Source: an uncultured bacterium (lineage in GTDB: Bacteria > Fidelibacterota > Marinisomatia > Marinisomatales > UBA1611). From it: a DNA stretch of 64,000 nt. This document shows positions 575-35,537 of the stretch, one piece after another. The notes beneath the pieces were generated by a model. That model was not told the origin of the DNA, made no database searches, and was given only the letters and a program-made list of their open reading frames with translations. The translations under genes and the position numbers were made by a program. The DNA is taken from the NCBI GenBank assembly GCA_943788175.1, contig CALSPG010000007.1:96001-160000 (forward strand). The letters are read 5' to 3'. Numbering within the stretch: position 1 is the first letter of the stretch; every line of letters starts with the position of its first letter.

Positions 575-3500
575 ATGCTTAAAAAAATTATTAATTCATT
601 AATTATTTTTTCATTTTCTTTTTCTCAAAATGTACAATTAAATGAAATAGTCTCTTCAAACCAAAATACCTATTATGATGAAGATGGAGATACGCCTGAT
701 TGGATTGAACTGTATAATTCTACATCGAATAACATATCACTTAATAATTGGGGTTTATCAGATGATATTGAAGACCCATTTAAGTGGCGTATTCCAAACG
801 TGATATTAGCACCAGAAGATTTTTTAATGATTCTGGCATCTGATAAAGATCGTGTTGATATGATATCAGAGTGGGAGACTATTATAGATATAGGAGATTC
901 GTGGTATTACTTTGTAGCTAGCCAAGAGCCAGTCTCAAATTGGAATCAGTTAAGTTTCAATTCTAGTAGTTGGAGTATTGGTCCGAGCGGTTTTGGATAT
1001 GGTGATGGTGATGATAATACTGAAATCACTAATACTGTTTCTGTTTATCTCATTAAACCTTTTTCAATAACAGATTTTGACCAAATTAAAAAGTTAGCTT
1101 TTCATATTGATTATGATGATGGTTTTGTAGCTTATTTAAATGGTAACGAGTTTGCTAGAGATAATATTGAAGGAACGCCACCTGCATTCAACCAAGGTAC
1201 ATTAACATGGCGTGAAGCAGAAATGATAAATGGTGGGTCTCCTTCTCTTTTTTGGGTTGATTCAGCTGAAGCATGGGTTAATGAAGGACCTAATGTCCTA
1301 GCAATTCAAGTTCATAATTTTAATAGTAGTTCTTCGGATTTAACATGCATTCCTTTTTTTACTTTAGGTAGAAATTCTCATTCAGGTAGTGCTCCAACTA
1401 TCGCTGAAGAAATAGACTTACCACTTTCAATTCTTCACTCTAATTTTAAGATTAGTTCTAACGGAGAGACTATTTTGATGACAGATTCAGATAGTGTTTT
1501 AGTTGATTCTATTTATACAGGAATTCTTCAATCTGATGTATCAATTGGTAGAATAAATGATGGTGAAAATTATGGTCTATTTTTAGAACCCACCCCAGCT
1601 GAAACAAATGGGGAAGAATCTGTACTAGGGGTTTTAAATGATATTACATTTTCACAAGAATCTGGTTTTTACAATTTAGCCATACTACCTGTTTCAATAA
1701 CTACTTCAGATGAAGATGCCGCTATTTATTATACATTAGATGGTTCTGAACCAACGATAAATTCAATTTTATATACTAATAATCCAATATTGATTTCAGA
1801 AAATAGAGTATTAAGAGCTACTAGTTTTAAAGCTAACTGGATAAGCTCTCCAATTAAAACTGCGACGTTTATTTTAGAAAGTGGGGATAACAACTTTCCT
1901 ACAATCTTTTTATCAACTAACCCTGATAATTTTTTCGATTTCAACACCGGGATATATGAAATGGGTCCCAATGCTTCTCAAGATTATCCACATTTTGGTG
2001 CAAACTTTTGGGAAGATTGGGAGAAACCTATTTTCTTAGAAGTGTTAGAAACCGATGGTACTTATTTTTCTGCTCCAGCTGGAGTTAAAATTTTTGGCGG
2101 GTGGAGCAGGGGACAGTCCCAAAAATCCTTGTCTCTTTTTGCGAGGAGTCAATATGGAGCTTCAGAATTTAATTATCGTTTTTTCCCTGATTTAGAATTA
2201 GAGGACTTTCAGTCCTTAGTATTACGTAACTCTGGAAATGATTGGAGCTTTACGATGCTAAGAGATGGGTTTATGACAAGTATTTTTCATGATGTGGATC
2301 TTGACGTTCAGAGCTATCGACCAATGCTAGTGTATTTAAATGGTGAGTTTTGGGGTTTGTACAATCTTAGAGAAAAAGTAAATGAGCACTTTATAGCTGG
2401 ACATCACCCTGTTGATCCTGATGAAATAGATTTAATTGAAGTTCAAACCGCAAATGAAGGGTCCATTGATGATTATGATGAATTGCTTGATTATGTAACT
2501 CAATCTGATATGACTGACCCTATTGTTTTTGATTCACTATCAAAATGGATTGATATTGATAACCACATAGATTATAACATTGCTCAAATTTTTATTGATA
2601 ATAGAGATTGGCCTGGTAATAATATCAAATATTGGAGGCCACAACAAAATGATGGGTTATGGCGGTGGATTTTGTATGATACAGATTTTGGATTTGGAAT
2701 TCCTTGGAATGGTCAAGGTTATGATTATAACACACTTTTATTCGCCCTTGAAGAAAACGGACCAGGATGGCCAAATCCGCCTTATTCTACATTTTTATTA
2801 AGAAAACTTTTTGAGAATTCAGATTATAGAGATCGATTTGTTAATATATTTTGTGATAGGCTTAACACTGTTTTTAAGTCAGCGTTTTTGAACGGAAGAA
2901 TAAATGAGATGGCATCTTATATCCAAGATATAATACCTTTTCATCGTGGCAAGTGGCCTAATTCAGCTCAAGATTGGAATTACCATATTGAAATTTTAGA
3001 AAACTTTGCTAATAATAGATCTTTATATGTAAGGCAGCATTTATCAAGCTTTTTTAATTTATCTAGTCCTGCCTTGGTAACATTTATTTCTAGTCTAGGT
3101 GGTGAAATTAAAATTAATTCTATTTTCCCGGATTCTTATCCCTGGGCTGGATATTACTATCCCAGCGTCCCAATTGAAATTGAGGCGATACCAGAAGATG
3201 GATACAGGTTTATTGGCTGGGCTCAATACTCAGATTCAACCGCCAAAATGAAAGTTCAAATTTCTAACAATTCAATGATAACAGCATTATTTGAAGAAAT
3301 ACCTGGCGACGCCACAATTGATTTAGTGATAAATGAAATTAATTATAATAGTTCTGACCAATTTGATACAGGTGACTGGGTTGAACTTTATAACAATGGT
3401 TCTGAGCGGATAGATATATCAGGTTGGTATTTCACAGATGAAAATGAAGACAATAAGTTTATTTTTCCTGAAAATTCGAATATTGATCCAAATGCTTATA

Positions 3501-4108
3501 TTGTTTTAGCCCAAAATGTAGAATCTTTTTTAGCTCTTTTCCCCGAGACTTCTAATCTATATGGTTCTTTTAATTTTGGCCTTAGTGGAGGAGGAGAAGA
3601 AATTAGTTTGTATGATGCTTCTGATGCGTTAGTTGATCAAGTTGAATATAATGATGATCTACCTTGGCCAACTGAGCCAGATGGGAATGGGCCCACTCTT
3701 GAGCTTATGCATCCAGACTCATTAAATGAATTTTCCAGTAGCTGGGGGTCTTCCGCTGGGAATGGAACACCAGGTTATATAAATAGTATATTTGAAACTT
3801 TAAAAAACACAGAGGATGAAATTAATCCCTCTGATCGTATTTTATATTCTGTTTTCCCCAACCCATTTAATTCACATGTTAAAATTATTTTTGATATTGT
3901 AAAAATGAGTCAAATCAATTTCACCATTGTTAATATATTAGGTGAAAAGGTACGCACATTTGAAAATCAAAATTACTCTAGTGGATTAAACACTTTAGTT
4001 TGGGACGGTAAAAATAATTTTGGACAAGACTTAAGTACTGGTATTTATTTTTGCAGGTTAAAATCAAAAAATATTGATAAGAGCATTAAACTTCTTTACG
4101 TAAAATAA
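575..4108 (+). CDS. Secreted CotH-kinase family protein with two lamin-tail domains, a chitobiase/FN3-associated domain and a C-terminal FlgD-Ig/T9SS-type-A-like domain
   Basis: Signal peptide; LTD motifs NEI..DWIELYN and INEINYN..DWVELYN; IYYTLDGSEP; CotH motifs YLNGEFWGLYNLRE, NRDWPGNN, WRWILYDTDFGFG; C-terminal FPNPFN...WDGKN..G..LSTGIYF. Confidence 0.85.
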   Translation: MLKKIINSLIIFSFSFSQNVQLNEIVSSNQNTYYDEDGDTPDWIELYNSTSNNISLNNWGLSDDIEDPFKWRIPNVILAPEDFLMILASDKDRVDMISEWETIIDIGDSWYYFVASQEPVSNWNQLSFNSSSWSIGPSGFGYGDGDDNTEITNTVSVYLIKPFSITDFDQIKKLAFHIDYDDGFVAYLNGNEFARDNIEGTPPAFNQGTLTWREAEMINGGSPSLFWVDSAEAWVNEGPNVLAIQVHNFNSSSSDLTCIPFFTLGRNSHSGSAPTIAEEIDLPLSILHSNFKISSNGETILMTDSDSVLVDSIYTGILQSDVSIGRINDGENYGLFLEPTPAETNGEESVLGVLNDITFSQESGFYNLAILPVSITTSDEDAAIYYTLDGSEPTINSILYTNNPILISENRVLRATSFKANWISSPIKTATFILESGDNNFPTIFLSTNPDNFFDFNTGIYEMGPNASQDYPHFGANFWEDWEKPIFLEVLETDGTYFSAPAGVKIFGGWSRGQSQKSLSLFARSQYGASEFNYRFFPDLELEDFQSLVLRNSGNDWSFTMLRDGFMTSIFHDVDLDVQSYRPMLVYLNGEFWGLYNLREKVNEHFIAGHHPVDPDEIDLIEVQTANEGSIDDYDELLDYVTQSDMTDPIVFDSLSKWIDIDNHIDYNIAQIFIDNRDWPGNNIKYWRPQQNDGLWRWILYDTDFGFGIPWNGQGYDYNTLLFALEENGPGWPNPPYSTFLLRKLFENSDYRDRFVNIFCDRLNTVFKSAFLNGRINEMASYIQDIIPFHRGKWPNSAQDWNYHIEILENFANNRSLYVRQHLSSFFNLSSPALVTFISSLGGEIKINSIFPDSYPWAGYYYPSVPIEIEAIPEDGYRFIGWAQYSDSTAKMKVQISNNSMITALFEEIPGDATIDLVINEINYNSSDQFDTGDWVELYNNGSERIDISGWYFTDENEDNKFIFPENSNIDPNAYIVLAQNVESFLALFPETSNLYGSFNFGLSGGGEEISLYDASDALVDQVEYNDDLPWPTEPDGNGPTLELMHPDSLNEFSSSWGSSAGNGTPGYINSIFETLKNTEDEINPSDRILYSVFPNPFNSHVKIIFDIVKMSQINFTIVNILGEKVRTFENQNYSSGLNTLVWDGKNNFGQDLSTGIYFCRLKSKNIDKSIKLLYVK

Positions 4109-4111
4109 GAT

Positions 4112-5092
4112 ATGATTCAAAAAGCTCTTTTTATATTTATTATCGCAAATATAGTGTTCGCGAACATTGATTTATCAACCGACTTAGCATACCAATTAGT
4201 CTTAGAAAAAATAAATAAAAAAACAGTTCCTGTCTCTTTTATAGATAATGTATTCAAAAATCCAAAAATTGAACTACATGCAAAAATACCAGAGCGCTTT
4301 GCTAGGCCGTACGAAAAAAAATCATGGGAGCAGTACAAAAAATTATTTATAAAAGAGTCGCGGATTGTAGCGGGTGTCAAGTTTTATAGTGAAAATAAAG
4401 ATTTAATATTAAAAGTTTCAAAAAAGTACGGCGTAGACCCGTTTATAATATTAAGTATTGCAGGAATCGAGAGTAATTATGGTAAGCATTATAAAGGATT
4501 TACTGTTTTCAATTCATTATACACACAAATTCATGAGATGCCTAAAAGAGCAAAGTGGGCTTCTAAGGAATTAGCCTCTTATTTAGAATATTGTTACAAA
4601 GACAATGTCGACCCGCAAAGTATTGAGGGTTCGTATGCTGGGGCCTTTGGTTTTGGACAATTTATCCCATCAAGTTTCAACAGATATTCAGTAGACTTTG
4701 ATAATGATGGTGTTAGACGACCCCATGATTGGCCAGATGTTTTAGGAAGTATTGCTAACTACCTTATCAAAAATGGTTATACTTCTGGAAGTGCAAATTA
4801 TAAGAAAAAAGGAGATATTTGGAAATCTGTTTATGCATATAACCATTCAGAAAATTATGTGATGGCAGTGCTTGGCCTAACCGAAAAAATTAGAGAAAGA
4901 TCTAGTTATCTTCATTCAAATGTTGAAGATAGATTAAACTATGTTATTGAGAATTTTGATCCATTAGACAATAAATCTGTTAGTGACTTGCAAAAAGTTT
5001 TAAATGCGAATGGCTATGATCTAGAAATAGATGGAAGACTTGGTAGAAGCACTTTAGATGCTCTCAGAGAGGCTCAGTTAAAGCGAAATTAG
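4112..5092 (+). CDS. mltB: Lytic murein transglycosylase (MltB/SLT_2 family) with a C-terminal peptidoglycan-binding domain
   Basis: GIESNYG (catalytic Glu), GSYAGAFGFGQFIPSSF, DFDNDG, SIANYL, YNHSENY; PG_binding_1-like LQKVLNANGY..IDGRLGRST. Confidence 0.85.
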   Translation: MIQKALFIFIIANIVFANIDLSTDLAYQLVLEKINKKTVPVSFIDNVFKNPKIELHAKIPERFARPYEKKSWEQYKKLFIKESRIVAGVKFYSENKDLILKVSKKYGVDPFIILSIAGIESNYGKHYKGFTVFNSLYTQIHEMPKRAKWASKELASYLEYCYKDNVDPQSIEGSYAGAFGFGQFIPSSFNRYSVDFDNDGVRRPHDWPDVLGSIANYLIKNGYTSGSANYKKKGDIWKSVYAYNHSENYVMAVLGLTEKIRERSSYLHSNVEDRLNYVIENFDPLDNKSVSDLQKVLNANGYDLEIDGRLGRSTLDALREAQLKRN

Positions 5093-9084: not shown

Positions 9085-9420
9085 ATGCAGCAACATTATT
9101 TGAAAGTTTTGGACATAGGTCATAATGGAAAATCGCCTGATGAAGCAATGATGATCCTTGAGACGACAGTAAGTCAATGCTCTTTTGAAAACAAGATTAA
9201 AGCTATAAAAGTCATTACCGGTCATGGTTCCGGGAAATTACGAAAAATTGTAAGGGCATGGTGTAATGATCAAGAAGGTCGGTTTAATAAAGTAATATAT
9301 GGTGAAGACTATGATATGTTTAATAAAGATGCAGTTAATATGAGGAGTGATTGCAACCAACCTCTTGATAATGATTTTGGCAGGAAAAATGCAGCAGTAA
9401 CATATATATGGTTGAGGTAA
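9085..9420 (+). CDS. Stand-alone Smr (small MutS-related) domain protein
   Basis: LDIGH..SPDEAM, VITGHGSGKLR, N.AVTYIWL. Confidence 0.75.
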   Translation: MQQHYLKVLDIGHNGKSPDEAMMILETTVSQCSFENKIKAIKVITGHGSGKLRKIVRAWCNDQEGRFNKVIYGEDYDMFNKDAVNMRSDCNQPLDNDFGRKNAAVTYIWLR

Positions 9421-9421
9421 C

Positions 9422-10009
9422 ATGGTAAAAGCAAAACATATTAAACTTATTCTATTAATATTCGCTGGGGTTCATTTATTTAATTGTGCGGGTACAAATT
9501 ATAAAAAAATGAGTATTGAAGACCCTCGTTCGCTATTAGCGATTCAAGATTCGCTAATACTTGAAAACAAAAACAATCAAAATATTATGGATGCTCTAAT
9601 GACAGCTAATAACAATATGGGTAAAAACTATCTAATAAAAGGAGAATTGTTTTTAGCTATTGATCATTTTAAAAAAGCTATTTCTTTAAATAGTGAAAAT
9701 AAATTCTCTAAATATAGTTTGTTAATTGCTGAGGGCCGTGTGCTGATAAAAAGAGGAAATAAAAATGGTATGTGGGATGCTATTGAAAAGTTTTCAAAAG
9801 CTTCAAGTTTTTTCCCAGACAAAGGGGAGCCCTTTTATTGGATGGCTATTTCTTATACAAAACTAGGCGATACTGAATTTGATTTAATTCTTGAATCTTA
9901 CGAAAAATCTTTATCTTTGGAGTTAAGTGAAAATATTAAGAGTGAGGTTGAAAAAAAGTATGAAAAAGCAAAAAAGCGAAAACAAAAACTTGATTCATTT
10001 TGGAAATAA
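9422..10009 (+). CDS. TPR-repeat protein, probable lipoprotein
   Basis: Signal peptide ending LFNC; TPR-like helices (AIDHFKKAISLN, AIEKFSKA..FPD, YEKSLSLE). Confidence 0.7.
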   Translation: MVKAKHIKLILLIFAGVHLFNCAGTNYKKMSIEDPRSLLAIQDSLILENKNNQNIMDALMTANNNMGKNYLIKGELFLAIDHFKKAISLNSENKFSKYSLLIAEGRVLIKRGNKNGMWDAIEKFSKASSFFPDKGEPFYWMAISYTKLGDTEFDLILESYEKSLSLELSENIKSEVEKKYEKAKKRKQKLDSFWK

Positions 10010-10063: not shown

Positions 10064-10092
10064 TTGACACGCGATTGATTATTAAGTAAGAT
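10064..10092 (+). promoter_or_regulatory. Sigma70-type promoter of the motor operon
   Basis: TTGACA (10064-10069), 17-nt spacer, TAAGAT (10087-10092); SD-like GAGG at about 10138 before ATG 10148. Confidence 0.65.
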
Positions 10093-10147
10093 TGCTCCCA
10101 CTCTGCATTGTAAGATGCAAAGTGACTTAAAATATCCGAGGTAAGAT

Positions 10148-11311
10148 ATGAGATCACAATTGAGCTTTATAAGGCGAGTTGTTAGCTCGCTGTACGTTCT
10201 ATTGCTTTTAGGGCATTCTGTGTCTTTAGCTGCAAAGTACGACTTAAAGGGCACGGTAATAGGTGCTGATGGTAAAGTTAAAGTCGAACTAGCAGGCACA
10301 AAAAAGGATGCGCGGACTAAAAAAAATGGTGCGTTTAAATTAAGTAATGTTCCTGAAGGGGAATATACGCTTCAGGTTTTTCAGGATAAGAAAGTTATCC
10401 ACGAACAATCTATTAATGTAACGGAAGATGACGACAACTTAGAAGTTAAAGTTGGAGCTTCTTCTATTGCTCCTGTTGAAAAAACTGTTTCATCATTAAC
10501 ACCAGCTTCAGTAGCAACATCTGCAAATCCAATTGTCGAAAGTTCGCCAATTCCGCAAACTGCTGAGTCTTCTGGCGGAGCTTCAAATGACTTCATTGTA
10601 AATGAACTTAATTTTGAGATTAAAAAATTAACTGCTGAATTCAAGCACCTTAGTAGGGAGATGGATGATCTTAAGGCTTTAAGTAAAATGTGGATTAATC
10701 CTTTAACTATTTATTCTAAAGAAATAATTTTAAAAAATGGTAGTACTGTTTTTGGTAAAATTGTTTATCAAGACGATAAGTCCTTAAAAGTTGAAACTTT
10801 AGTGGGTTATCTTATCATAAAGCGTGATGAGGTAGTTCGAATAGTAGACAATGTAATTACTGAGGATCAGCAAGAATATGTTCCGGAGCAAATTAGAGAA
10901 AGTTATGCCCCTCCACCTATGCCAAAATTAACAGTTCCAAAGTATACTTCATCAAGTATGTCAAATAGGGATGCTGGCCAAAAATTTTCTGCTAATTGCG
11001 TCCTCATGGGAAATATTACTGAAAAGAAAGACAGCCAAGGTAATATTGTTTTTAATGGTGAAATTAAAAACATCGGTGGAAGAAGAGCTGATTTTGTTAA
11101 AATGGATTTTGTTTTTAGAAAAAATTGGAGCGGCGAAACCCGAACGCTCACTACTTTCATTCAAGGTTCATATAATACTTTTGACAGCGGTATTGTCTCT
11201 GATGCGAGTTTGCTTCCAGGTGCTCTCGGAAAATTCGAATTATATGTTCCACAAGATTTTGGATCATTCATAGGATATTCCTACGTTATTGATTGGGAAG
11301 AGTATCAATAA
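10148..11311 (+). CDS. Exported multidomain protein: carboxypeptidase-regulatory-like beta-sandwich, S/T/P/A linker, coiled coil, small beta domain and C-terminal FxLYD-like Ig domain
   Basis: Signal peptide (SLA|AK); LKGTV...T.KNGAFKLSNVPEGEYTL; IILKNGSTVFGKIV...IKRDEVVRI; FNGEIKNIGGRRADFVK...LLPGALGKF. Confidence 0.6.
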   Translation: MRSQLSFIRRVVSSLYVLLLLGHSVSLAAKYDLKGTVIGADGKVKVELAGTKKDARTKKNGAFKLSNVPEGEYTLQVFQDKKVIHEQSINVTEDDDNLEVKVGASSIAPVEKTVSSLTPASVATSANPIVESSPIPQTAESSGGASNDFIVNELNFEIKKLTAEFKHLSREMDDLKALSKMWINPLTIYSKEIILKNGSTVFGKIVYQDDKSLKVETLVGYLIIKRDEVVRIVDNVITEDQQEYVPEQIRESYAPPPMPKLTVPKYTSSSMSNRDAGQKFSANCVLMGNITEKKDSQGNIVFNGEIKNIGGRRADFVKMDFVFRKNWSGETRTLTTFIQGSYNTFDSGIVSDASLLPGALGKFELYVPQDFGSFIGYSYVIDWEEYQ

Positions 11312-11324
11312 AAATATTCCAAAT

Positions 11325-12203
11325 ATGTTTAAATACTTTTACATAATATTATTTTTTTCAATGTCTATGGCGGTTAGTCAGAATGGCGCTGGCGATACAT
11401 TTTTCCTAGATATGGGCGTTGTTATCCAGTCAGAAAACAAAGGGATAGCATTGCCTGACTTTTCTTCTCCGACACCTAGGCTAAAATCAAATAATATTGT
11501 CAAAACAATAGAATCTAGTTCTGTTTACATGGCGACAACATCTGATATGATTTCATCCTTGGATAGAATCACATCCCAAGTTACAGATATTGAAAAAGAT
11601 TTTGAATCGAAACTAGACATGCTAGAAATCGAAAACTTTAATTTGAGAAATCAAATTACTGGACTCAAAAAAAGGTTGAACGCTGAAATCTTAGATGCAA
11701 GTCTTATCGATGTTAATTTAGAGAAACCGCAAAAAGAATCATCACTTCCTTATGAGAACATCACAAAAAATTTAGAAATGAATGAAGTTGTCGCGCATTC
11801 TAATGATATTTTAACTAAAAGATCAGTTTTACAAAGATTTGATTTTGATATTTTTACTGAAGGCGTTATTCACTATAATAATGAAAAATATTACGATTGT
11901 ATTAGTAGTCTTAGCGTGCTGCCTGTGGATGATAATAGTAATAAAAACGCTAGTAAAACTTTATTTCTATTAGCTGATTCGTATGAAAACATGGGAAGAT
12001 ATAAACAAGCTCTTAATCATTTAGATAGATTGTCATTGGCTAATGATGATGAGTATTCAGATTTAATTTTATTTAAAAAAGGTATAATTTACAGAAACAT
12101 TGGCATGATGATTGAAGCGCAGAAAGCGTTTCAGGAGCTAGTTGAATCATTTCCCAAAAGTGAATTTAAAATCTTTGCTGAAGAAGAAATCCAAAATATA
12201 TAA
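11325..12203 (+). CDS. Exported coiled-coil plus TPR protein (CpoB/YbgF-like architecture)
   Basis: ATG 11325 gives signal peptide MFKYFYIILFFSMSMAVS|Q; heptad region LDMLEIENFNLRNQITGLKKRL; TPRs ending AFQELVESFPKSEF. Confidence 0.65.
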   Translation: MFKYFYIILFFSMSMAVSQNGAGDTFFLDMGVVIQSENKGIALPDFSSPTPRLKSNNIVKTIESSSVYMATTSDMISSLDRITSQVTDIEKDFESKLDMLEIENFNLRNQITGLKKRLNAEILDASLIDVNLEKPQKESSLPYENITKNLEMNEVVAHSNDILTKRSVLQRFDFDIFTEGVIHYNNEKYYDCISSLSVLPVDDNSNKNASKTLFLLADSYENMGRYKQALNHLDRLSLANDDEYSDLILFKKGIIYRNIGMMIEAQKAFQELVESFPKSEFKIFAEEEIQNI

Positions 12204-13582
12204 TGAGAAATATTAAAAACATTATAATCTTTTTTCTTATTACTTCAAGTATGATTTTCGCATCTGCCAGGGTTGCATACACTCGACCAGGGCTTATGAT
12301 GCGAATTCCAACATCAAGCATTCAAAAAGCTCCGTACATATTTAGAACGGGTTTTGGTGTTGAGTTGCATAATTTTGATCCAATAAATACCGCAAAAGGT
12401 GTTTATTTTGACATGGAATTTGGCAAGGGTTTTTCAGCTGGTTTTTCAGCTGTCCAAGGTGGTGATACTACCTCTTTAGACCTAATTTCAAAATCTCAAT
12501 ATTCGCCACAAGTAGAATTCGGTTTTCACTTTCAGCAAAGAGTCTTTGTTTACAATGATATTTCTCTATCTGCTGGATTGCAAGATATTGTTTTTCAAAA
12601 CAACCAAGATGACGAACAAGTTTTAAGTTTAAATACTGATCTATTGTCTTTTTTTCTAGTTTTAGCTAGTGAAAAAGACTTAGGTGATTATAAAATGAGC
12701 ACTTTCATGGGCTTCGGTACAGGAGGCCTTGGTCCAATGGATAGTGTCAAAGTAATAAGTGATTCAACGCAAACGGCAAATGCGGGTGTCTTTGTTGGAT
12801 TCTTATTGAAAACACCCTACTTCGGTAGAAATGGTGGAATGGATATTGTGGGTGAATTCGATGGAACAGGTGTCAATGTGGGACTCCGCATCCCCCTTAC
12901 CTCGGATTACCGCCTGAACCTTGGGTTCACCCACATAGAGCGTTTACCAAGTTGGAAAACGCGATATTGGACAGGCCATCCTGCTTTCACAATTGGATTT
13001 GATATGGCAGTCCCTAGAATTGGAGGGAGTTCGAGATCTTCAACTAGTGGGCCATCAAACCAGCCTTTATCAACCGCAAACCTGGCGTTTTCTAATGATG
13101 GAACTGTGCCAGCATATATGGATTCAACTATTGCTATGGCAGATTTCACAGTTATGTCATTAAGGGATTCCATGTTGATGATGAACAATGAAATGCGAAA
13201 TTTAATGGTTCAGCTTTCAGCCTTGGAGCAGGAGTCACAATTTCTTGTTGACTCATTGAAACAATTAAAACTCGGAAAAAATGTTCAAGAAAAAAATATG
13301 AATGAATCAATGAGACATCTATCACGGAGTCTTCGCTTCTTTTATGCTGGTGATTTTCGTGAAGCTTTGAAAGAAGTTGATTTATCATTGGAACTGAAAC
13401 CTGATTTAGCTCTAGCTTACGCTAGACGTGGTTCTATATATTACAAATTAGGTGATGTTCAAAGAGCCACAATTAATTGGAATTTAGCCCTTAGGTTAGA
13501 TCCCGAATATGATGATGTAAGAAATATTTTGAAGGCGCTTCATGAGAACCGTCTCAAAGATGCTAATTTATTTGAGGAGTAA
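12203..13582 (+). CDS. Putative outer-membrane beta-barrel (YjbH-like) fused to a coiled coil and C-terminal TPRs
   Basis: Signal peptide; GLMMRIPTS N-motif; amphipathic strands (GFHFQQRV, SLSAGLQDI, TFMGFGTG, VGEFDGTGVNVGLRI, FTIGFDM); coiled coil at about aa 320-370; TPR LKPDLALAYARRGSIYYKLGD...ALRLDP. Confidence 0.6.
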   Translation: MRNIKNIIIFFLITSSMIFASARVAYTRPGLMMRIPTSSIQKAPYIFRTGFGVELHNFDPINTAKGVYFDMEFGKGFSAGFSAVQGGDTTSLDLISKSQYSPQVEFGFHFQQRVFVYNDISLSAGLQDIVFQNNQDDEQVLSLNTDLLSFFLVLASEKDLGDYKMSTFMGFGTGGLGPMDSVKVISDSTQTANAGVFVGFLLKTPYFGRNGGMDIVGEFDGTGVNVGLRIPLTSDYRLNLGFTHIERLPSWKTRYWTGHPAFTIGFDMAVPRIGGSSRSSTSGPSNQPLSTANLAFSNDGTVPAYMDSTIAMADFTVMSLRDSMLMMNNEMRNLMVQLSALEQESQFLVDSLKQLKLGKNVQEKNMNESMRHLSRSLRFFYAGDFREALKEVDLSLELKPDLALAYARRGSIYYKLGDVQRATINWNLALRLDPEYDDVRNILKALHENRLKDANLFEE

Positions 13583-13585
13583 TTT

Positions 13586-14374
13586 ATGGATATTGCATTA
13601 ATTATAGGTGTTGTACTCGGTTTAGCTGCTATGATTGGTAGTATTGCTTATGCTCTATTTGTTGAGGGGTCAGCAGGGGGTTTTGGTAATTTTCTATCAG
13701 CACCTAGTTTTGGAATTGTATTTGGAGGTATGATAGCCTCTATTTTTGTTGCATTTCCGATGCCACACGTGGTTGCGCTAGGAAAAGCTATTGGAGCAGT
13801 GCTTAAACCAGCAGATGATAAGATGGGTGGATTAGTCGACGAAGCAGTTGAAGTTGCAGATGTCGGACGAAAAGGAGCAGCTGATCTCGAAAAATCAGTT
13901 GATAGTATTAAAAATTATTTTTTTAAAGATGGCGTGCAAATGGTTGTTGATGGCTACTCTTTAGACGAAATCACAGAAATTATGGAAACCAGAATTGAAT
14001 ACAGAGAGAAAAGGGAAAATGTTCAGAAATCCATGCTTAAATCTATGGGCGACCTTGCTCCTGCTTGGGGTATGGTAGGAACTCTAATTGGTTTAGTACT
14101 CATGTTAGCTGGTTTTGGTGGAGAAGGTGGAGCAGATAACCTTGGTGGTGGTATGGCGGCAGCGCTCATTACGACTCTTTACGGAGCTGTATTTGCCAAC
14201 TTGTTTTTTCTTCCAATGGCAGATAAAATGGGTAATAAAACTACTCAAACATCTATGTCAGCAGCGCTTTTAGTAGAGGCTGCTCGATTGATACATCAAA
14301 AGAAGCACCCATTAATCGTGCGAGAAAAATTAAACTCTTTCATTCCTCCTGGAGAGTGGAAATCAGAGGGCTAA
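13586..14374 (+). CDS. motA: Stator A subunit (MotA/PomA family)
   Basis: SFGIVFGG, GRKGAADLE, FFKDGVQMVVDG, APAWGMVGTLIGLVLML, MAAALITTLYGAVFANLFFLPMADK. Confidence 0.93.
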   Translation: MDIALIIGVVLGLAAMIGSIAYALFVEGSAGGFGNFLSAPSFGIVFGGMIASIFVAFPMPHVVALGKAIGAVLKPADDKMGGLVDEAVEVADVGRKGAADLEKSVDSIKNYFFKDGVQMVVDGYSLDEITEIMETRIEYREKRENVQKSMLKSMGDLAPAWGMVGTLIGLVLMLAGFGGEGGADNLGGGMAAALITTLYGAVFANLFFLPMADKMGNKTTQTSMSAALLVEAARLIHQKKHPLIVREKLNSFIPPGEWKSEG

Positions 14375-14383
14375 GGTTCTTTT

Positions 14384-15265
14384 ATGGCTGGAGCAGAATT
14401 CAAAAAAGGTTATAATAAAGGTTTCGCAGCTGGAGCGGACTCTGTTGAAGAGGGGCTTCCTGGATGGTTTGGAACGTTTGCAGACATGATGACTCTATTG
14501 TTTGCTTTTTTTGTATTATTAGCTGCTATTTCAACAATGGACCCTGTAAAGTTACAAGAGATGTCTAATTCTGAGGGTAAATCTCTTGGTAGTAAAATCA
14601 AATCTTCTGGAAAAGCCGAACTTGAAGGAGAGTTTGAGCCAATTAAAAATTTAGCTGCCATGAAAAAAGAAATGGAAGAAACCATTGAAGAAATGAAAAA
14701 AGAAAGCCCTAAAGGAGATCCTCCCATTGATATTCAAACTAGTTCAAAAGGGCTAATAGTGAATATTAAAGGTGATTACGCTTTCCCGATTGGTAAGGCA
14801 TCAATGAAAGAGGAGTTAAAAGGACTTTTAGATGAAGAAATAATACCTAAAATCCAAAATAGTCCATTCCAGGTAGAGGTCGCTGGGCATTCAGATTCTG
14901 ATAGAATGCCAAAAAAATGGAGGAAAACTTTTGCAACTAACTGGGAACTTTCTGCAGCAAGAGGTGCAAGTGTTGTAAGATATATGATAGATAAAGGGAT
15001 ACCCGCTCCAAGGCTATTAGCAGCTGGATACGGACCTTGGGCTCCGCACGGACTCGATAGTGTAAAAAAACAAAATCCGATGTGGAACCCGTTAACTCTG
15101 ACTTGGAAAAAGGCAGTTTTAACTAAAGATGGTAAAGAAATGCCAACGGTTTTGGGTCTTAATAAAAATGAAAAAATGAAGTCTAAAAACAGAAGAATTC
15201 AAATTACTTTTTTAAATCCGCCACATCATGGTAAGGGGCGGTCAGCAACTAGTTATGATGAATAA
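14384..15265 (+). CDS. motB: Stator B subunit (MotB/PomB family) with OmpA-like peptidoglycan-binding domain
   Basis: WFGTFADMMTLLFAFFVLL (essential Asp34), plug region, VAGHSD, NWELSAARG, GYG, NRRIQI. Confidence 0.93.
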   Translation: MAGAEFKKGYNKGFAAGADSVEEGLPGWFGTFADMMTLLFAFFVLLAAISTMDPVKLQEMSNSEGKSLGSKIKSSGKAELEGEFEPIKNLAAMKKEMEETIEEMKKESPKGDPPIDIQTSSKGLIVNIKGDYAFPIGKASMKEELKGLLDEEIIPKIQNSPFQVEVAGHSDSDRMPKKWRKTFATNWELSAARGASVVRYMIDKGIPAPRLLAAGYGPWAPHGLDSVKKQNPMWNPLTLTWKKAVLTKDGKEMPTVLGLNKNEKMKSKNRRIQITFLNPPHHGKGRSATSYDE

Positions 15266-15286
15266 ATACATACCGAGGAGTATTTC

Positions 15287-17098
15287 ATGATAAAAACAGG
15301 TTTAAATCTTAAAAAGAAGTTAGCAGTATTTATGCTAGCTGGTCTTTTAGTTGGGCAAGGTTCTGGCTACTTAGCACAGAAGCTAATGGTTGAAAATAAT
15401 ATTAGAGAGAGAGTTAAAGATGCTTTATCTAAAATTATTGACAATAATAAATACGTTATAAATGTTGATATAGATTTAGAGATTAGCGATGAAGTCGAAG
15501 AACAAATCACTGTATTGGCTGAAAGAGAATCAAGGCGTTCAGTAGTTGAAGATTCAAATGAAGAAACCGAAACTGAGAAATCATTATCAAGTATTCAACA
15601 ATCTATAGAATCAGAAGAAACATCTGAAAGGTCGAGTTATTCAGTGGGACTACCTATACCTGGGTTTGAGATGGACTTCACTAATTCAAATAAAAGTAAT
15701 AAAAAATCTGAAGAACCGAGACCACCTGTGATGTCTGTTGAAACTAAAAAACCTATTCAGGTTTCAAGTGTTGACAGGGACGCTAGCGAACCTAGGGTTG
15801 ATAAGGTTTTATCTAGAACTCGTCCTTCAAGAGCAGAAATTAAAAAAATGTATATTAGCTTGATTTTACAAGAAGGTGCTGCACCAGAATTAATTGAAAA
15901 TATTCGTCAATTGACAATGGCTGCCGCAAAATTTGATAGAAATCGTGGTGACAAGCTTACTATTATGACAGCAAGTTTTAGAGAAAAAAGAGATCAGCGC
16001 TCCGCAGAGCAGATTATGTTGAAAAACATCGCTGAAAAAATTGAATTATTAGAACAAAAAAGAGAATACGAAGAAAACACGCAAGATGCTACATGGAAAG
16101 ATGAGTTAACTAAATACAGGGATGAAGAAACTGCTAGACGAGAAGATGATAGAAGATTTTTCGAAGGTCAGATATCGCAATTAGAGCAACAGGCCAAAAA
16201 CAGAGCTTATAATCAAGAAAAACAAGATATGCTGTTGAGAGACTCTCTGAAGTTAAAAAAATTGAATGACGAAATTATGGCGCTTAAGTCAATGCTAAGG
16301 TCTTCTGAAAGAAGAGATAGTTTAAAAACAATCAGTAAGCAAGAACGAATTGATTCTCTAAGGTATGTTAGTCTAAGCAGTGAGTTAGATGAATTAGCAA
16401 AATCTCTTCAAGTGGCAGTAAAAACCAAATCAAAAGATGAAGAAGTTATAGCAAAGCGTAAGATTCAGGCTGAGATGGAAGATAGAGAAAAGCAAAAAGA
16501 AGAAAGAGAAAAAGAAATTTCTGATAAGATTCGTGAGCTTGATAGCGTCCAAGAAGAACTTGATCAGCTCCATGAAAACATGGAAAAAGAGAGCGGGAAT
16601 ACATTTATTATTTTAATTGCTCTAGGCGCTATTGTCTTTTTATTAATAATTGCATTAATTTTTATTTTATTAAAAAACAATAATAGGCAGGCTCCTGTCC
16701 CTCCTTGGATGATGCCTCCACCTCCTCGTAAACCAAGGAGAAGAAAAAGAGAAACTTCAAAAGAAAAAAAACCTATTGAAGCAAAAAAAATTGAAGAGCC
16801 AGCAGTTGTCGTACCTGAGCCAAAGCCTGAGCAAGCTGAAGTAAGCCAACCTGCTGAAAATACTTCTGGGCAAGAAAGTTCTTTACCATCAAGTGACGAT
16901 GATCCCGATGTCGTTCGTAGTGAAATAAATGATATCCGGAAATCAGTTGTATCCATGAGCGTTGGTCAGCCAGATAGAACTACAACTATTGTTAAGGAAT
17001 GGTTAGAACAACCAGAGCCTACACCTACAGCAGAGCCTGAGCAAGAATCTGCTGAAGATCCAGCAGATGGTAGTGATTCTGAAGAAAAAGAAAAGTAA
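15287..17098 (+). CDS. Divergent FliF-like ring protein: RBM3 only, long coiled coil, TM helix and FliG-binding C-terminus
   Basis: VENNIRERVKDALSKII...VINVDIDL and EIKKMYISLIL...IENIRQLTMAAAKFDRNRGDKLTIMTASF match the two halves of FliF RBM3. TM at about aa 439-462. IRKSVVSMSVGQPDRTTTIVKEWL matches the FliF C-terminal motif. Confidence 0.75.
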   Translation: MIKTGLNLKKKLAVFMLAGLLVGQGSGYLAQKLMVENNIRERVKDALSKIIDNNKYVINVDIDLEISDEVEEQITVLAERESRRSVVEDSNEETETEKSLSSIQQSIESEETSERSSYSVGLPIPGFEMDFTNSNKSNKKSEEPRPPVMSVETKKPIQVSSVDRDASEPRVDKVLSRTRPSRAEIKKMYISLILQEGAAPELIENIRQLTMAAAKFDRNRGDKLTIMTASFREKRDQRSAEQIMLKNIAEKIELLEQKREYEENTQDATWKDELTKYRDEETARREDDRRFFEGQISQLEQQAKNRAYNQEKQDMLLRDSLKLKKLNDEIMALKSMLRSSERRDSLKTISKQERIDSLRYVSLSSELDELAKSLQVAVKTKSKDEEVIAKRKIQAEMEDREKQKEEREKEISDKIRELDSVQEELDQLHENMEKESGNTFIILIALGAIVFLLIIALIFILLKNNNRQAPVPPWMMPPPPRKPRRRKRETSKEKKPIEAKKIEEPAVVVPEPKPEQAEVSQPAENTSGQESSLPSSDDDPDVVRSEINDIRKSVVSMSVGQPDRTTTIVKEWLEQPEPTPTAEPEQESAEDPADGSDSEEKEK

Positions 17099-17115
17099 GG
17101 ATAAGAGGTTAAGAT

Positions 17116-18060
17116 ATGATTACAGATTATAATCGCCTATCAGGGCTTCACAAAGTCGCAATTCTTTTCTCAGTGCTTGGTGAGAGTCTTGCTATGTCTC
17201 TTATTAAAGGCTTGTCTCGTACAGAAGTTCGAAAAATACGAGCAACTATTCGCGAAATGGGTAATGTTTCCTTTACTCTAAAAAGACGAGTTATGGAGGA
17301 ATTTTATTTTGGGTTTCTGAGCGAACAATTCTCTGATGAAAGTGATAATAATGAAGACGAAGGACCTATTAAGCCTTTTGAGTTTTTAACTGAAATGACA
17401 GATGAGCAACTTATTGCATTATTAGCAAATGAAGATGTCCCAGTTGTAGGAATTGCATTAGCTCAATTAGACGCAGGTAAAAGAATGACTATTTTAGAGC
17501 GAATGAAGCCTGAACAAAAAGGTAAAGTCCTTATTGAACTTGGTAGTTTACAAGAAATTCCATTAGAAGCTATTGTAGAAGTAGCTGGGAAGCTTAAAGA
17601 AAAAGCATCTTATCTACCAAAACCAGTAGAGTTTTCTAGAGGGGGAGCGAAAGAAATTGCTGACTTAATAGGAGAAATGGATGCAGACGAAGGTGAAAGA
17701 TATATGCAAACTCTTCAGAATGAAAATTCAGAGCTTTATAAAGCTGTAAAAATGCTTGTTCTAACGTTTGAAGATATTTTAGATAATTTCCCAGATGGAA
17801 TTTTAAGAGATCTTTGTAATAGTGTTGAGCTTGATTCTTTGTCTATGGCTATGAAAGGCATAGATCAAGAGGTCGTAGATAGGGTAGTGGGTAATTTGCC
17901 TCAAAAGAAACAAGCCATGTTTGAACCAGTAGAGGGGCCTAAACCAAAAAGAGAAGTTGATGATGCTAGAAAAATTATTGTTTCTGCAGCGAAAGAAATG
18001 GAAAAAGAAGGAGCTTTTAATTTAGCTGATATGATGGGCGGCGGAGAGATGGTAGAGTAG
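17116..18060 (+). CDS. fliG: FliG-like rotor protein (divergent)
   Basis: LSGLHKVAILFSVLGE (N domain), PFEFL...QLIALL (M domain), RGGAKEIADLI (GG linker), LTFEDI, GPKPKREVDDARKII..KEMEKEG (C domain). Confidence 0.9.
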   Translation: MITDYNRLSGLHKVAILFSVLGESLAMSLIKGLSRTEVRKIRATIREMGNVSFTLKRRVMEEFYFGFLSEQFSDESDNNEDEGPIKPFEFLTEMTDEQLIALLANEDVPVVGIALAQLDAGKRMTILERMKPEQKGKVLIELGSLQEIPLEAIVEVAGKLKEKASYLPKPVEFSRGGAKEIADLIGEMDADEGERYMQTLQNENSELYKAVKMLVLTFEDILDNFPDGILRDLCNSVELDSLSMAMKGIDQEVVDRVVGNLPQKKQAMFEPVEGPKPKREVDDARKIIVSAAKEMEKEGAFNLADMMGGGEMVE

Positions 18061-18087
18061 CATTATTGTTCTACAATTAATTGTTTT

Positions 18088-18115
18088 AAAAAAGCCCCGG
18101 TATCGGGGCTTTTTT
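18088..18115. terminator. Bidirectional intrinsic terminator between fliG and ppdK
   Basis: AAAAAA-GCCCCG-gtat-CGGGGC-TTTTTT between convergent genes. Confidence 0.92.
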
Positions 18116-18126
18116 AATTAATATAA

Positions 18127-33498: not shown

Positions 33499-34113
33499 TT
33501 ATTTTAATCTGAAGTTTACTGGGATTGATATCCAAACACCGACTGCTCTTTCTCTTTGCTTTGCGGGTCTAAATCTTGTCTTTCTTATTGCGTCCATTGC
33601 GGCTTCATCTAGTCCTGTGTTCGGTATTCCTTTTAAAATTATTGTCTCTTTTACTCGTCCTCTATCATCTATAAAAGCCTGCACAACAACAACGCCTTCA
33701 ATACCTGCTTCTTGTGCTATCTCAGGGTATATTGGCCTTATTGCACTTATAGGCTTTGGCGGATCGTCATAAGGAATAAACTTTACTTTAGGTCCGCTAG
33801 GAGCTGGAGGAGCATCCCAAGCTTCAAAATCATCAAAATCTAAATCATCCAATGTCACATCATCTGCAATATCTTCATCGTCTGTAGGAACAGGGATTGA
33901 TGGTCTAGCTGGAGGCGGAGTATTATCGATTTGTTGTGTCTGTGGGATGTCTATATTTTCAATGGAAATTTGTTCTACGTTTCCAAACTCCGATTTAGAA
34001 ATAAACCTAGGAAATATTAAAAACATAAAAACTAGACTAAATATTCCACAAAGACCAGCGACTCTTACTACGATAGGGTATTTGCCTTTAAGTGGGTTTG
34101 TATTCAGCTTCAT
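33499..34113 (-). CDS. tonB: Energy transducer TonB
   Basis: N-terminal TM, Pro/acidic linker, YPEIAQEAGIEGVVVVQAFID..G.V...F.PA.Q. Confidence 0.9.
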   Translation of the reverse strand: MKLNTNPLKGKYPIVVRVAGLCGIFSLVFMFLIFPRFISKSEFGNVEQISIENIDIPQTQQIDNTPPPARPSIPVPTDDEDIADDVTLDDLDFDDFEAWDAPPAPSGPKVKFIPYDDPPKPISAIRPIYPEIAQEAGIEGVVVVQAFIDDRGRVKETIILKGIPNTGLDEAAMDAIRKTRFRPAKQRERAVGVWISIPVNFRLK

Positions 34114-34523
34114 TAACGAACGAGTGTTTTTGTAGAGTAGTTAAGTTTTAAAGCATCAGCTTCGCGTAATTCTTCATGAATAGATGATATAAGTTCCATT
34201 TTTGCCTCTTCATCAGCTTTTAACGATACAATTAGCTGTGGGTCGGAGACCCTTTTTTCATACATTATTTTTGCTACATCTTGAACGGCAAACAACCTAT
34301 CGTTTATTGAAACTAATCCTTCTTTAGATATCCAAATATGAGCAGTATGTCGTTTCCCTTTTAATTTTTCGATTTTTTCTGCTTTTGGAATATTTACGGG
34401 TAAACCAGAGTACTCACGCAAAACGGTTGTTACCATAAAAAATATTAGAAGCATGAAAATAATATCAGGCATTGAAGAAGTTGGTATCTCACTTGAGATT
34501 TTTGTTTTTCTTGAAAAATTCAT
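34113..34523 (-). CDS. exbD: Biopolymer transporter ExbD
   Basis: SMPDIIFMLLIFFMVTT; SLKAD. Confidence 0.9.
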   Translation of the reverse strand: MNFSRKTKISSEIPTSSMPDIIFMLLIFFMVTTVLREYSGLPVNIPKAEKIEKLKGKRHTAHIWISKEGLVSINDRLFAVQDVAKIMYEKRVSDPQLIVSLKADEEAKMELISSIHEELREADALKLNYSTKTLVR

Positions 34524-34921
34524 TAGTTCGAGTTAGCTATAGATATCTTTTTTGCATTAGCAATTTTTAGTTGGTCAAGAACGCGTATATAATCGCTGTA
34601 GTCTGTTTTTGGATGTGCTTTAACCGAAACAATTAATAGCGGATTTTTTGCTAATCTTTTTTTAACTATTCTTCCAATTTGTTCAACGTTGGTAGGTTCT
34701 TCATCAAGGAGAACTTTACCCTGAGAGTTAATTAGGCAGTTTATTATATTCTTTTTTTGAATTTCGATTTCTACATCGCCTGCTGGAGGTAGGACTATTC
34801 CAAGACCTTTATCAGTGTCTATTGTAGTTGTAACTAGGAAAAAAACGAGTAACAAAAAGGCAATGTCTGCCATAGAACCCGTTGGGATTTCCCCACCCTT
34901 AAATCGACGATTTCTAATCAT
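34523..34921 (-). CDS. exbD: Biopolymer transporter ExbD
   Basis: SMADIAFLLLVFFLVTTT. Confidence 0.9.
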   Translation of the reverse strand: MIRNRRFKGGEIPTGSMADIAFLLLVFFLVTTTIDTDKGLGIVLPPAGDVEIEIQKKNIINCLINSQGKVLLDEEPTNVEQIGRIVKKRLAKNPLLIVSVKAHPKTDYSDYIRVLDQLKIANAKKISIANSN

Positions 34922-34931
34922 TTAATAAGAA

Positions 34932-35537
34932 TTATTTTGTGTTCTGTAGGTACTCAACAATCTTAATGGACTGTTCTTCCATATCTAAAATAAGCTTATC
35001 AATCATGGATACAAAAAAGTTTTGAGAAACTTGCATTATCATCGCAACAATTAATCCAAAGGCAGTAGTCAAAAGCGCTTGGGATATACCTCCTGCAACT
35101 ACTGCTGGAGAGATATCATTCGCCATTTTAATATCTTCAAATGCTTTAATCATTCCAACAACTGTTCCGGTAAATCCAAGCATTGGAGCAATGGTTATAA
35201 CAGAATTAATCCAGATCATGTTTTTCTCAAGAAATGCCATTTCAAGCCCACCAGCATTTTGGACAGCTTTTTCGATTTCTTCTTTTTGTTTACCCATTTT
35301 AGATAGGCCCGCGTAAAATATAGATGCAACAGGACCTGGTGCGCTTTCACAAAACTCTATTGCTTTTTCCTTACCAGAATCATCGTATGTCGTTTTTACA
35401 TCTTCAAAAAACTTATCAGTATCAGAACTTGAGTTAATTAGTGAATATGCTCTCTCGCCAACTACAGCAAGTCCAAAGAGTAGTGCGATGAGAATTGGCC
35501 ACATAAAACCACCACCTTGTACAAAAAAATCAACCAT
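34932..35537 (-). CDS. exbB: ExbB/TolQ proton channel
   Basis: GGGFMWPI, APMLGFTGTVVGMIKAF, AGGISQALLTTAFGL. Confidence 0.92.
   Translation of the reverse strand: MVDFFVQGGGFMWPILIALLFGLAVVGERAYSLINSSSDTDKFFEDVKTTYDDSGKEKAIEFCESAPGPVASIFYAGLSKMGKQKEEIEKAVQNAGGLEMAFLEKNMIWINSVITIAPMLGFTGTVVGMIKAFEDIKMANDISPAVVAGGISQALLTTAFGLIVAMIMQVSQNFFVSMIDKLILDMEEQSIKIVEYLQNTK

Follow-up and report, generated by a model that had tools for sequence, protein, structure and literature searches.

Several ion-driven machines of the bacterial envelope stand close to the locus reported here, namely the flagellar motor core, the PomAB stator of Vibrio, the Tol-Pal (with CpoB) and ExbBD-TonB systems, and the GldLM/PorLM motor of type IX secretion and gliding. 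To our knowledge, neither FliG nor FliF has been described outside the flagellum. We analyzed a 64,000-nucleotide stretch of DNA, hereafter the window (assembly GCA_943788175.1, contig CALSPG010000007.1, positions 96,001 to 160,000 of the forward strand), from an uncultured Marinimicrobia (SAR406, Fidelibacterota) bacterium. In this window, seven co-oriented genes at 10148-18060 on the plus strand encode three putative exported proteins (g1, g2, and g3), MotA, MotB, a cut-down FliF (g6), and a FliG-like protein. We consider it probable that this operon specifies an envelope-spanning rotor-stator machine that is self-contained and non-flagellar. Were a conserved FliG/FliF/MotAB set to work with no export gate, rod, hook, filament, or switch, the best-studied rotary motor in biology would have gained a new use; the carriers form a bacterial group that is among the most abundant in the dark ocean, and there are relatives in other phyla.

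The operon resembles the flagellar motor core in encoding homologs of MotA, MotB, FliG (N, M, and C domains), and the RBM3 domain plus FliG-binding helix of FliF, and its MotB conserves the channel Asp, the plug, and the peptidoglycan-binding domain. Flagellar FliF, however, has RBM1 and RBM2, whereas g6 lacks both and gains about 200 residues of predicted periplasmic helix; flagellar FliG has the EHPQ..R motif and a longer torque helix, whereas the FliG-like protein lacks the motif, has a shorter helix, and falls in a separate clade. Five flagellar families (FlhA, FliP, Flg_bb_rod, Flagellin_N, and FliMN_C) are unmatched in the genome of the operon, which, unlike the flagellar core, carries a predicted outer-membrane barrel and TPR proteins. 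The likeness to Tol-Pal with CpoB and to ExbBD-TonB lies in a 5:2-type ion-driven motor, an OmpA-like domain, a long helical protein, and a coiled-coil/TPR protein. Those systems use a TolQR/ExbBD stator rather than one of flagellar type, and the FliG-like partner and the RBM3 ring domain have no counterpart there; taking a TolQ/TolR-type motor, TolA, TolB, and Pal to define Tol-Pal, the operon is not such a set, since TolQ matched at 0.016 and no TolB_N was found. With GldLM/PorLM, which occurs in the same superphylum, the operon would share the principle of an inner-membrane ion-driven motor energising an outer-membrane complex, and the host has SprA and cargo; the operon nevertheless has no sequence relationship to GldL or GldM, and its distribution departs from that of SprA and cargo.

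Results

The rotor proteins are remodelled relatives of FliF and FliG

Domains were assigned by Pfam and NCBIfam scans of the window proteins. These scans bore out the parts list of an earlier reading of this DNA (the original prediction), that is, three exported proteins, motA, motB, a fliF-like gene, and fliG. Every curated NCBIfam equivalog score of the operon proteins lay under its cut-off, and they are thus divergent relatives and no ordinary flagellar genes.

The g6 protein matched YscJ_FliF_C (PF08345; 3e-7, 31 bits), and no match to PF01514 (YscJ_FliF, RBM1/RBM2) was obtained in the Pfam scan. Its layout begins with a hydrophobic N-terminus and a split RBM3-like domain (residues ~25-235), into which a loop containing GLPIPGFE is inserted. 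Two helices of about 110 residues each (237-346 and 353-464) follow, the second of which contains the membrane span (transmembrane helix at ~443-467), and a cytoplasmic linker rich in Pro and Lys leads to a C-terminal helix of the FliG-binding type (~540-575). In the AlphaFold2 model of g6 (mean predicted local distance difference test [pLDDT] score 66.6), a hydrophobic helix at the N-terminus precedes a split alpha-beta domain built of strands 56-76 and 173-195, helix 200-214, and strand 223-229; the two long helices come next, and the chain closes with two short helices. In a Foldseek search with this model, the top 18 matches were all RBM3 domains of the FliF membrane-supramembrane (MS) ring (E 3e-7 to 6e-6), the next match being at 0.05, and a profile of 15 orthologs of g6 aligned colinearly with the RBM3 domain (286-470) and C-terminal FliG-binding helix of Vibrio FliF (4.6e-4). 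Because of the structural matches and this colinear alignment, we take g6 to be a FliF without RBM1/RBM2 but with an added ~200 residues of periplasmic helix. The claim of a remodelled FliF thus held up, as g6 keeps the RBM3 fold and the C-terminal FliG-binding helix and lacks RBM1/RBM2; that such subunits form a ring is a prediction. By arithmetic at 0.15 nm per residue, the long helices would make either a hairpin of ~16 nm or a single span of ~30 nm, two arrangements between which a monomer model cannot tell.

All three FliG domains were present in the FliG-like protein (FliG_N, 2.5e-13; FliG_M, 1.9e-8; FliG_C, 1.2e-20, 74 bits), and its TIGR00207 score was 101.5 bits, under the 226.7-bit cut-off. 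An alignment of 66 orthologs, 34 fusion proteins (described below), and 48 canonical FliG proteins was then read at the functional positions. Where canonical FliG has EHPQ..R, which we take to be its FliM-binding motif, the window protein reads EDVP. Only the Glu of the motif is kept in the 66 orthologs (98%), and its R position is occupied by Glu in 89% of them, whereas the 48 canonical rows have H in 77%, P in 89%, Q in 97%, and R in 97%. The torque helix is 3-5 residues shorter than the canonical one; at the position of E. coli R281, 100% of the orthologs have Lys instead of Arg, and Pro and Val, flanked by Glu on both sides, stand in for the acidic pair of the torque helix. Across the 66 orthologs, the torque segment reads PQKKQAM(Y/F)EP almost without variation and differs from its canonical counterpart. 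These substitutions suggest that the FliG-like protein has a rotor-stator interface of its own and would be unable to recruit FliM. With regard to the rotor surfaces, the original prediction was right in part: the FliM-binding motif is lost, the RBM1/RBM2 part of FliF is gone, and the FliG-binding helix is kept, but the stator contact, which had been expected to persist, is remodelled through the shorter torque helix and the replaced acidic pair.

The stator is of the MotAB/PomAB type

The motA product matched MotA_ExbB (PF01618; 3e-27) and, as its best NCBIfam model, MotP/PomA (2e-52), of which it is a divergent member, scoring 177.8 bits against a MotP cut-off of 394. Against the PDB, it matched MotA (2e-36) and PomA (4e-34). 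Residues T166, T196, and T197 align with PomA T158, T185, and T186, and the Arg-Lys pair of the PomA cytoplasmic loop (R88/K89) is kept, whereas the acidic residues of that loop are shifted relative to Vibrio PomA. The MotB protein matched MotB_plug (9e-15) and OmpA (7e-10), has a variable C-terminal tail, and among PDB entries matched MotB (2.7e-22) and PomB (2e-18), its transmembrane D34 being aligned to the conserved Asp (PomB D24). The pair thus combines a four-helix MotA channel protein with a MotB that bears the Asp, the plug, and the OmpA-like domain, as in MotAB/PomAB-type stators. In Vibrio, PomA T158/T185/T186 and PomB D24 have been shown to be needed for sodium conduction (PMC6677748). 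Identical counterparts of the three PomA threonines and of the PomB Asp (D34) are all present in the operon stator. A sodium-driven stator is plausible in this marine organism, although ion specificity is not readable from sequence.

A second MotA/MotB-like pair occurs in the host genome (G000:C5:55274-56880; L098 1141-2747), consisting of a 292-aa MotA_ExbB protein and a 241-aa protein with MotB_plug and OmpA domains; it sits after a rhomboid gene and before a cadherin-like/Big_9 protein. This second MotA has 26% identity to the operon MotA and carries the same GT and TT motifs. The families of the phylum that are poor in the FliG-like ortholog (f12, 0/13; f15, 0/2; f26, 7/33) gave no match to the second pair. 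It could be a second stator for the operon rotor or part of another machine.

The accessory proteins are predicted to reach the outer envelope

The g3 protein matched TPR in Pfam, and its N-terminal half is Gly/aromatic-rich. Its AlphaFold2 model (mean pLDDT 66.6) shows 12 long strands over residues 45-271, which a disordered linker connects to a helix of 75 residues (308-382) and then a TPR domain (385-458), and Foldseek matched this model to FapF (1.6e-5), a designed 12-stranded barrel, NanC, OMPLA, and TPR proteins. The claim of an outer-membrane barrel joined to TPR is thus in line with a model of a 12-stranded barrel, coiled coil, and TPR. An alignment of g3 has 76 invariant columns, and its TPR is the most conserved part among the accessory proteins. 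The g1 protein, which is probably exported judging from a signal peptide read by eye, has a hydrophobic N-terminus, a CarboxypepD_reg/PEGA-like beta-sandwich (CarboxypepD_reg, 2.5e-7 in Pfam), a Ser/Pro linker, a short coiled coil, and a well-conserved C-terminal domain; an Atlas search with it returned its own Fidelibacterota family only and then PEGA proteins at 0.80. The g2 protein is exported and has a coiled coil and a TPR domain, weakly BamD/CpoB-like, with a weak TIGR02795 match (2.9e-4). Complex prediction with g6 residues 25-240 and the g3 TPR (355-459) gave a score of 0.00, which speaks neither for nor against binding.

The operon is distinct from the flagellum

The host genome (G000) has 2.27 Mb in 12 contigs and is 92.2% complete. 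Throughout this genome, FlhA, FliMN_C, FliP, Flagellin_N, Flg_bb_rod, and YscJ_FliF (PF01514) gave 0 matches, che genes and the FliM N-domain lying outside the search; as positive controls, each family was matched in 4 of 14 named genomes. The fliG-like gene of the operon is the sole FliG_C match in the genome, and the sole cultured member of the phylum is described as non-motile (PMC11652737). A complete flagellar set elsewhere in the genome, which the original prediction had named as what would speak against it, was thus not found among the families searched.

Orthologs of the FliG-like protein (E ≤ 1e-53, 34-100% identity) were present in 130 of 201 genomes of the phylum (151 with any match minus 21 with a weaker best match), and FlhA was above cut-off in 48 of the 201. 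The ortholog occurred with FlhA (31/48 genomes) as well as without it (99/153), and among the FlhA-positive carriers listed a second FliG (20-26% identity) lay on the flhA contig. In a set of 41 relatives, the FliG-like protein was found in 35 and canonical FliF (PF01514) in 3, the same three that have a low-identity second FliG. One genome, G030, was read gene by gene. Its contig C5 carries flgC, fliE, fliF, fliG, fliH, fliI, and flgD, with a FliF of 535 aa (PF01514, 198.7 bits; PF08345, 123 bits) and a FliG of 337 aa (FliG_C, 157 bits). Its contig C46 carries seven open reading frames (ORFs) with the sizes and order of the operon, the last being a FliG-like ortholog of 56% identity, while the first six were compared by size and order. 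The claimed independence from the flagellum thus holds both in the host genome, where the flagellar families searched are unmatched, and across the phylum, where the ortholog is found with or without FlhA. The operon is a paralogous copy of the flagellar motor core, with a PomAB-like stator, a FliG-like protein, and an RBM3-only FliF-like protein.

At G068:C8:10206-11150, with flhA ~24 kb away on the same contig, lies a FliG of intermediate likeness (32% identity, E 7.6e-39). A 342-aa protein of 31% identity, P0024, which is not shown to be from G068, groups with the orthologs in the FliG tree. A FliG of the G068 type may be a link between the flagellar and the operon systems.

The operon is conserved and under purifying selection

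Since loci were retrieved by the FliG-like protein, the synteny count tests only the conservation of its neighbors. In all 52 loci with at least 7.5 kb of upstream sequence, the six core genes (g1, g3, motA, motB, g6, and fliG-like) are colinear, down to 40% FliG identity, and g6 adjoins fliG-like in 19/19 shorter loci. The seven-gene synteny is thereby upheld for the core, g2 lying between g1 and g3 in 32/52 loci. In the loci lacking g2, the g1-g3 spacer is mostly only ~30-90 nt, so that g2 is really absent in most of them; the spacers of L069 and L081 are long enough for an undetected g2. Ratios of nonsynonymous to synonymous substitution rates (dN/dS) were computed by the Nei-Gojobori method with a close relative, L083, as the reference (dS 0.17-0.55). 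They were 0.007 for motA, 0.008 for motB, 0.031 for g3, 0.039 for g1, 0.076 for g6, and 0.114 for g2, the last being the fastest-evolving and a dispensable member (0.11-0.25 overall); the fliG-like gene gave 0.034-0.041 against L015-L017, where dS is near saturation. The operon is kept under strong purifying selection, with ratios (0.007-0.11) far from the value near 1 expected from relaxed selection, which the original prediction had listed as a sign against it.

Operon sequence is present in marine RNA libraries. Among 20 runs from seven studies, 14 that are registered as RNA contain parts of it. Contigs with an identity of at least 95% from four runs, each of a different study, cover the operon and bridge every gene junction; in run X2, a 2690-nt contig spans motA-motB-g6. 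Depth in X2 was ~2-4 upstream and 24-54 over most operon bins, with single bins at 86, 12, and 6, figures that cannot rank genes since they are contig depths; in X8 and X10, bins without cover carry no meaning. At window position 16813, X1 and X2 contigs (two studies) have 12 additional nt that keep the frame and fall within the cytoplasmic, Pro/Glu-rich linker of g6, which is strain variation.

The most distant Marinimicrobia loci (FliG 40% identity) have two tandem g2-like coiled-coil/TPR genes (in L086, at 2720-4828), making an eight-gene version, and in the vicinity is a subtilase that bears a type IX sorting domain.

FliF-FliG fusion proteins occur outside the phylum

With the FliG-like protein as query, an exhaustive search returned 3376 proteins at E ≤ 1e-3, only 28 of them at E ≤ 1e-30. 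After the orthologs came at least 33 clusters of 570-780-aa proteins with a C-terminal FliG. The fusions that we read begin with a signal-like segment, followed by an RBM-like domain that contains an LPGLP loop and an RGD strand; a single membrane span then leads to a short helix like the FliF C-terminus and, last, to FliG. One fusion protein also matches PF08345. By hhalign, the periplasmic domain of g6 and the N-terminal half of the fusions are homologous (99.3%, 2.3e-20). In an unrooted FliG tree of 93 rows, sampled from the best matches to the query and with groups set by length, the 48 canonical FliG proteins lie behind a branch with 100% support in the Shimodaira-Hasegawa-like approximate likelihood ratio test (SH-aLRT), and the Marinimicrobia orthologs (97%) and the fusions (98%) lie opposite. 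Given that the two rotor parts form one polypeptide in the sister group, a physical association of g6 with the FliG-like protein is well supported from the sequence side.

In a Pseudomonadales metagenome-assembled genome (MAG), the fusion P0057 belongs to a five-gene block (L104) that encodes an exported protein of 352 aa, a TPR protein of 233 aa, P0057 itself, and the pair MotA and MotB and is flanked on both sides by housekeeping genes. The TPR protein is homologous to the g3 TPR (hhalign 97.2%, 3.8e-11), and the MotA has 30% identity to the operon MotA with the same Thr motifs; no likeness was found between the g3 barrel and the 352-aa first gene product (probability 0.1%). The Marinimicrobia operon and the five-gene module therefore share FliG parts on the non-canonical side of the 100% branch, a homologous RBM domain including the LPGLP-type loop and RGD, a homologous TPR partner, and their own MotA/PomA-like MotAB. 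They differ in that the rotor is fused in the module but split into g6 and FliG-like in the operon, in that g6 has a long predicted periplasmic coiled coil that the fusions lack, and in that the operon, unlike the module, has barrel and TPR in one protein (g3) and the extra proteins g1 and g2. Among the fusion proteins queried singly, the module was obtained with P0057 only; such single-protein queries with P0040, P0104, P0084, and P0066 found no locus. Another fusion, P0080, lies on a gammaproteobacterial MAG chromosome (L094 10001-13709), where its neighbors are a P-loop NTPase of the KAP family and an ABC transporter. No description of the seven-gene operon or the five-gene module was found in the full-text literature searched, supplementary files that may hold gene lists being outside that search, nor in the portions available to us of recent papers on MotAB evolution and the ancestral flagellum. 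The operon is a split member of a wider undescribed family.

Proposed mechanism and alternative explanations

In the machine that we consider probable, units of the MotA5B2 type, tethered to peptidoglycan via MotB, would conduct sodium (or protons), and this flow would turn the MotA ring, which would push the remodelled torque helix of a FliG-like ring. This ring would be held beneath the inner membrane by the C-terminal helix of g6, the subunits of which may assemble an MS-ring-like ring via their RBM3 domains. The periplasmic ring and long helices of g6 would in turn engage the barrel/TPR protein g3 and the coiled-coil/TPR proteins g1 and g2, so that ion-motive energy at the inner membrane would become mechanical work at the outer envelope. 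Because the machine is without export gate, rod, and switch, it would neither secrete through its center nor reverse under chemotaxis. We infer the rotation of the assembly, its coupling ion, its output, and the delivery of torque to the outer membrane. The operon bears on the origin of the flagellar motor, as a rotor-stator core that exists apart from the type III secretion part, and offers a minimal four-protein motor for structural and synthetic work.

Several points weigh against this proposal. A ring and its rotation are predictions from sequence and models, and the confidence of the AlphaFold2 models is moderate (mean pLDDT 66.6 for g6 and for g3). The acidic torque pair of FliG is unconserved, so that torque via the known charge pairs cannot be assumed, and the link from the rotor to the outer-membrane proteins is a predicted one. 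The canonical group of the FliG tree was defined by length, with one member checked against Pfam. Contigs from RNA libraries cannot prove transcription, strand, or a single transcript, and DNA carry-over is possible. The fusion P0080 (771 aa) is not beside motAB. Finally, an ortholog was not found in 71/201 genomes, including 13/13 of family f12 and 26/33 of f26, and the operon is therefore dispensable.

An unlikely though serious alternative is a non-rotary force transducer like Tol-Pal/TonB, in which the stator would pull or twist single g6/FliG-like units and thereby energise outer-membrane tethering, constriction, or integrity. In keeping with it, the host genome has three MotA/ExbB-family loci only, one ExbB-ExbD-ExbD-TonB set and two MotAB-like pairs, and no TolB_N was found there; the TolB_N control, however, was matched in just 2/14 genomes, and the absence says little. 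The g2 layout of coiled coil plus TPR is that of CpoB/YbgF (if weakly so by TIGR02795), MotB and Pal both bind peptidoglycan via an OmpA-like domain, and the long periplasmic helices predicted for g6 are TolA-like. The stator, however, is of the MotA/PomA type (MotP 2e-52 versus TolQ 0.016), g6 carries the ring-building RBM3 fold of FliF, and the complete N, M, and C parts of FliG are kept, the last two points favoring a ring; we know of no studied case in which FliG does not work as a ring.

A broader version of the rotary proposal is that the split operon and the fused module together make up a third type of rotary, ion-driven envelope machine, next to the flagellum and the motor of type IX secretion and gliding. 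Their own PomAB-like stators would here turn a free-standing FliF(RBM3)/FliG rotor that drives an outer-membrane barrel/TPR complex, and the FliG clade may predate, or coincide with, the joining of the core to type III export. We offer it tentatively and think it quite unlikely to be right; descent from a pre-export rotor-stator core is possible because the FliG clade lies outside all canonical FliG sampled. If a third machine with such an early-branching core exists, the origin of the flagellar motor would become directly testable.

That the operon is the type IX secretion motor is highly improbable. Type IX secretion is a major route in the host genome, which has 77 Por_Secre_tail matches in 2.27 Mb as well as SprA, and SprA occurs in 199/201 genomes of the phylum. 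A motor for it would seem to be missing, as GldM (TIGR03517) was matched in 0/201 genomes and neither GldM_1st nor GldL gave anything over the cut-offs in 21 genomes, although these searches matched 0/14 control genomes, so that divergent GldLM may exist; g2 and MotB also gave weak PorW and PorE matches. Against these points stands the distribution of the operon. Family f12 has SprA in 13/13 genomes but the FliG-like protein in 0/13, and the FliG-like protein is likewise missing from G056, G045, and G038, where sorting-domain matches number 69, 65, and 32, respectively. The operon is therefore not required for type IX secretion, and we rejected this role. In the host genome, the SprA match (G000:C7:328244-334275) is spread over several frames, with one TGA inside the N-terminal piece.

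It is barely credible that the operon serves a true flagellum as an accessory or alternative rotor-stator set, in the manner of spirochaete FliG paralogues or dual stators. Its ortholog is indeed carried by 31/48 FlhA-positive genomes, and the intermediate FliG of G068 lies ~24 kb from flhA on the same contig; however, 99/153 FlhA-negative genomes carry the ortholog too, the other flagellar families searched are unmatched in the host genome, the flagellar cluster of G030 has its own fliF and fliG, and the FliG-like protein no longer has the FliM-binding motif. A decaying remnant of a lost flagellum, for which the missing flagellar families and the low scores of the operon relative to canonical proteins (FliG_C, 74 versus 157 bits; YscJ_FliF_C, 31 versus 123 bits) might speak, can be dismissed with near certainty, as it is contradicted by dN/dS of 0.007-0.11, intact frames, synteny in 52/52 loci down to 40% FliG identity, coexistence with full flagellar clusters, and sequence in RNA libraries of four studies.

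Layout of the operon and neighboring genes

The coordinates of the operon and its flanking features are given in Table 1. The seven ORFs are tightly packed, with spacers ranging from overlap to 21 nt, and all reading frames are intact; g6 and fliG-like, 17 nt apart, are separate genes here as in 52/52 full loci.

Table 1. Features of the operon and its flanks (window positions)
Feature	Position	Strand	Length	Remarks
g0	9422-10009	+		Small TPR protein with lipobox-like Cys; upstream neighbor of the operon
Promoter-like hexamers	10064-10092	+		TTGACA-17-TAAGAT, 10/12 match, 56 nt upstream of g1; candidate only
g1	10148-11311	+	387 aa	Putative exported protein
g2	11289-12203	+	304 aa	Internal ATG at 11325 is the likelier start
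g3	12203-13582	+	459 aa	
motA	13586-14374	+	262 aa	
motB	14384-15265	+	293 aa	
g6 (cut-down FliF)	15287-17098	+	603 aa	
fliG-like	17116-18060	+	314 aa	
Bidirectional intrinsic terminator	18090-18117	both		A-run, GC hairpin, T-run; common to a convergent ppdK-like gene

The sigma70 promoter claimed upstream of the operon did not stand. The hexamers exist, but 30 matches of this type were found in the window against 28.8 ± 5.2 expected from shuffles; since the frequency equals that of shuffles, the match is no evidence of a promoter. The strong terminator was borne out: its GC hairpin with T-run folds with a dG of -24.6 kcal/mol (z -5.0), and 0/200 shuffles fold as well; a simple terminator scan left this hairpin unlisted on the plus strand.

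Upstream of g1, the g0 TPR gene is found in 37/52 loci, and in other families a PALP enzyme gene intervenes; its membership of the system is doubtful. Farther along the window, an ExbB-ExbD-ExbD-TonB operon lies at 33499-35537 on the minus strand, followed by the gene of an S41 tail-specific protease (35617-37233). Directly before g0 is an ORF of 111 aa, the two together taking up window positions 9085-10009, and the counterpart of this ORF at the matching place in L053 carries an Smr domain.

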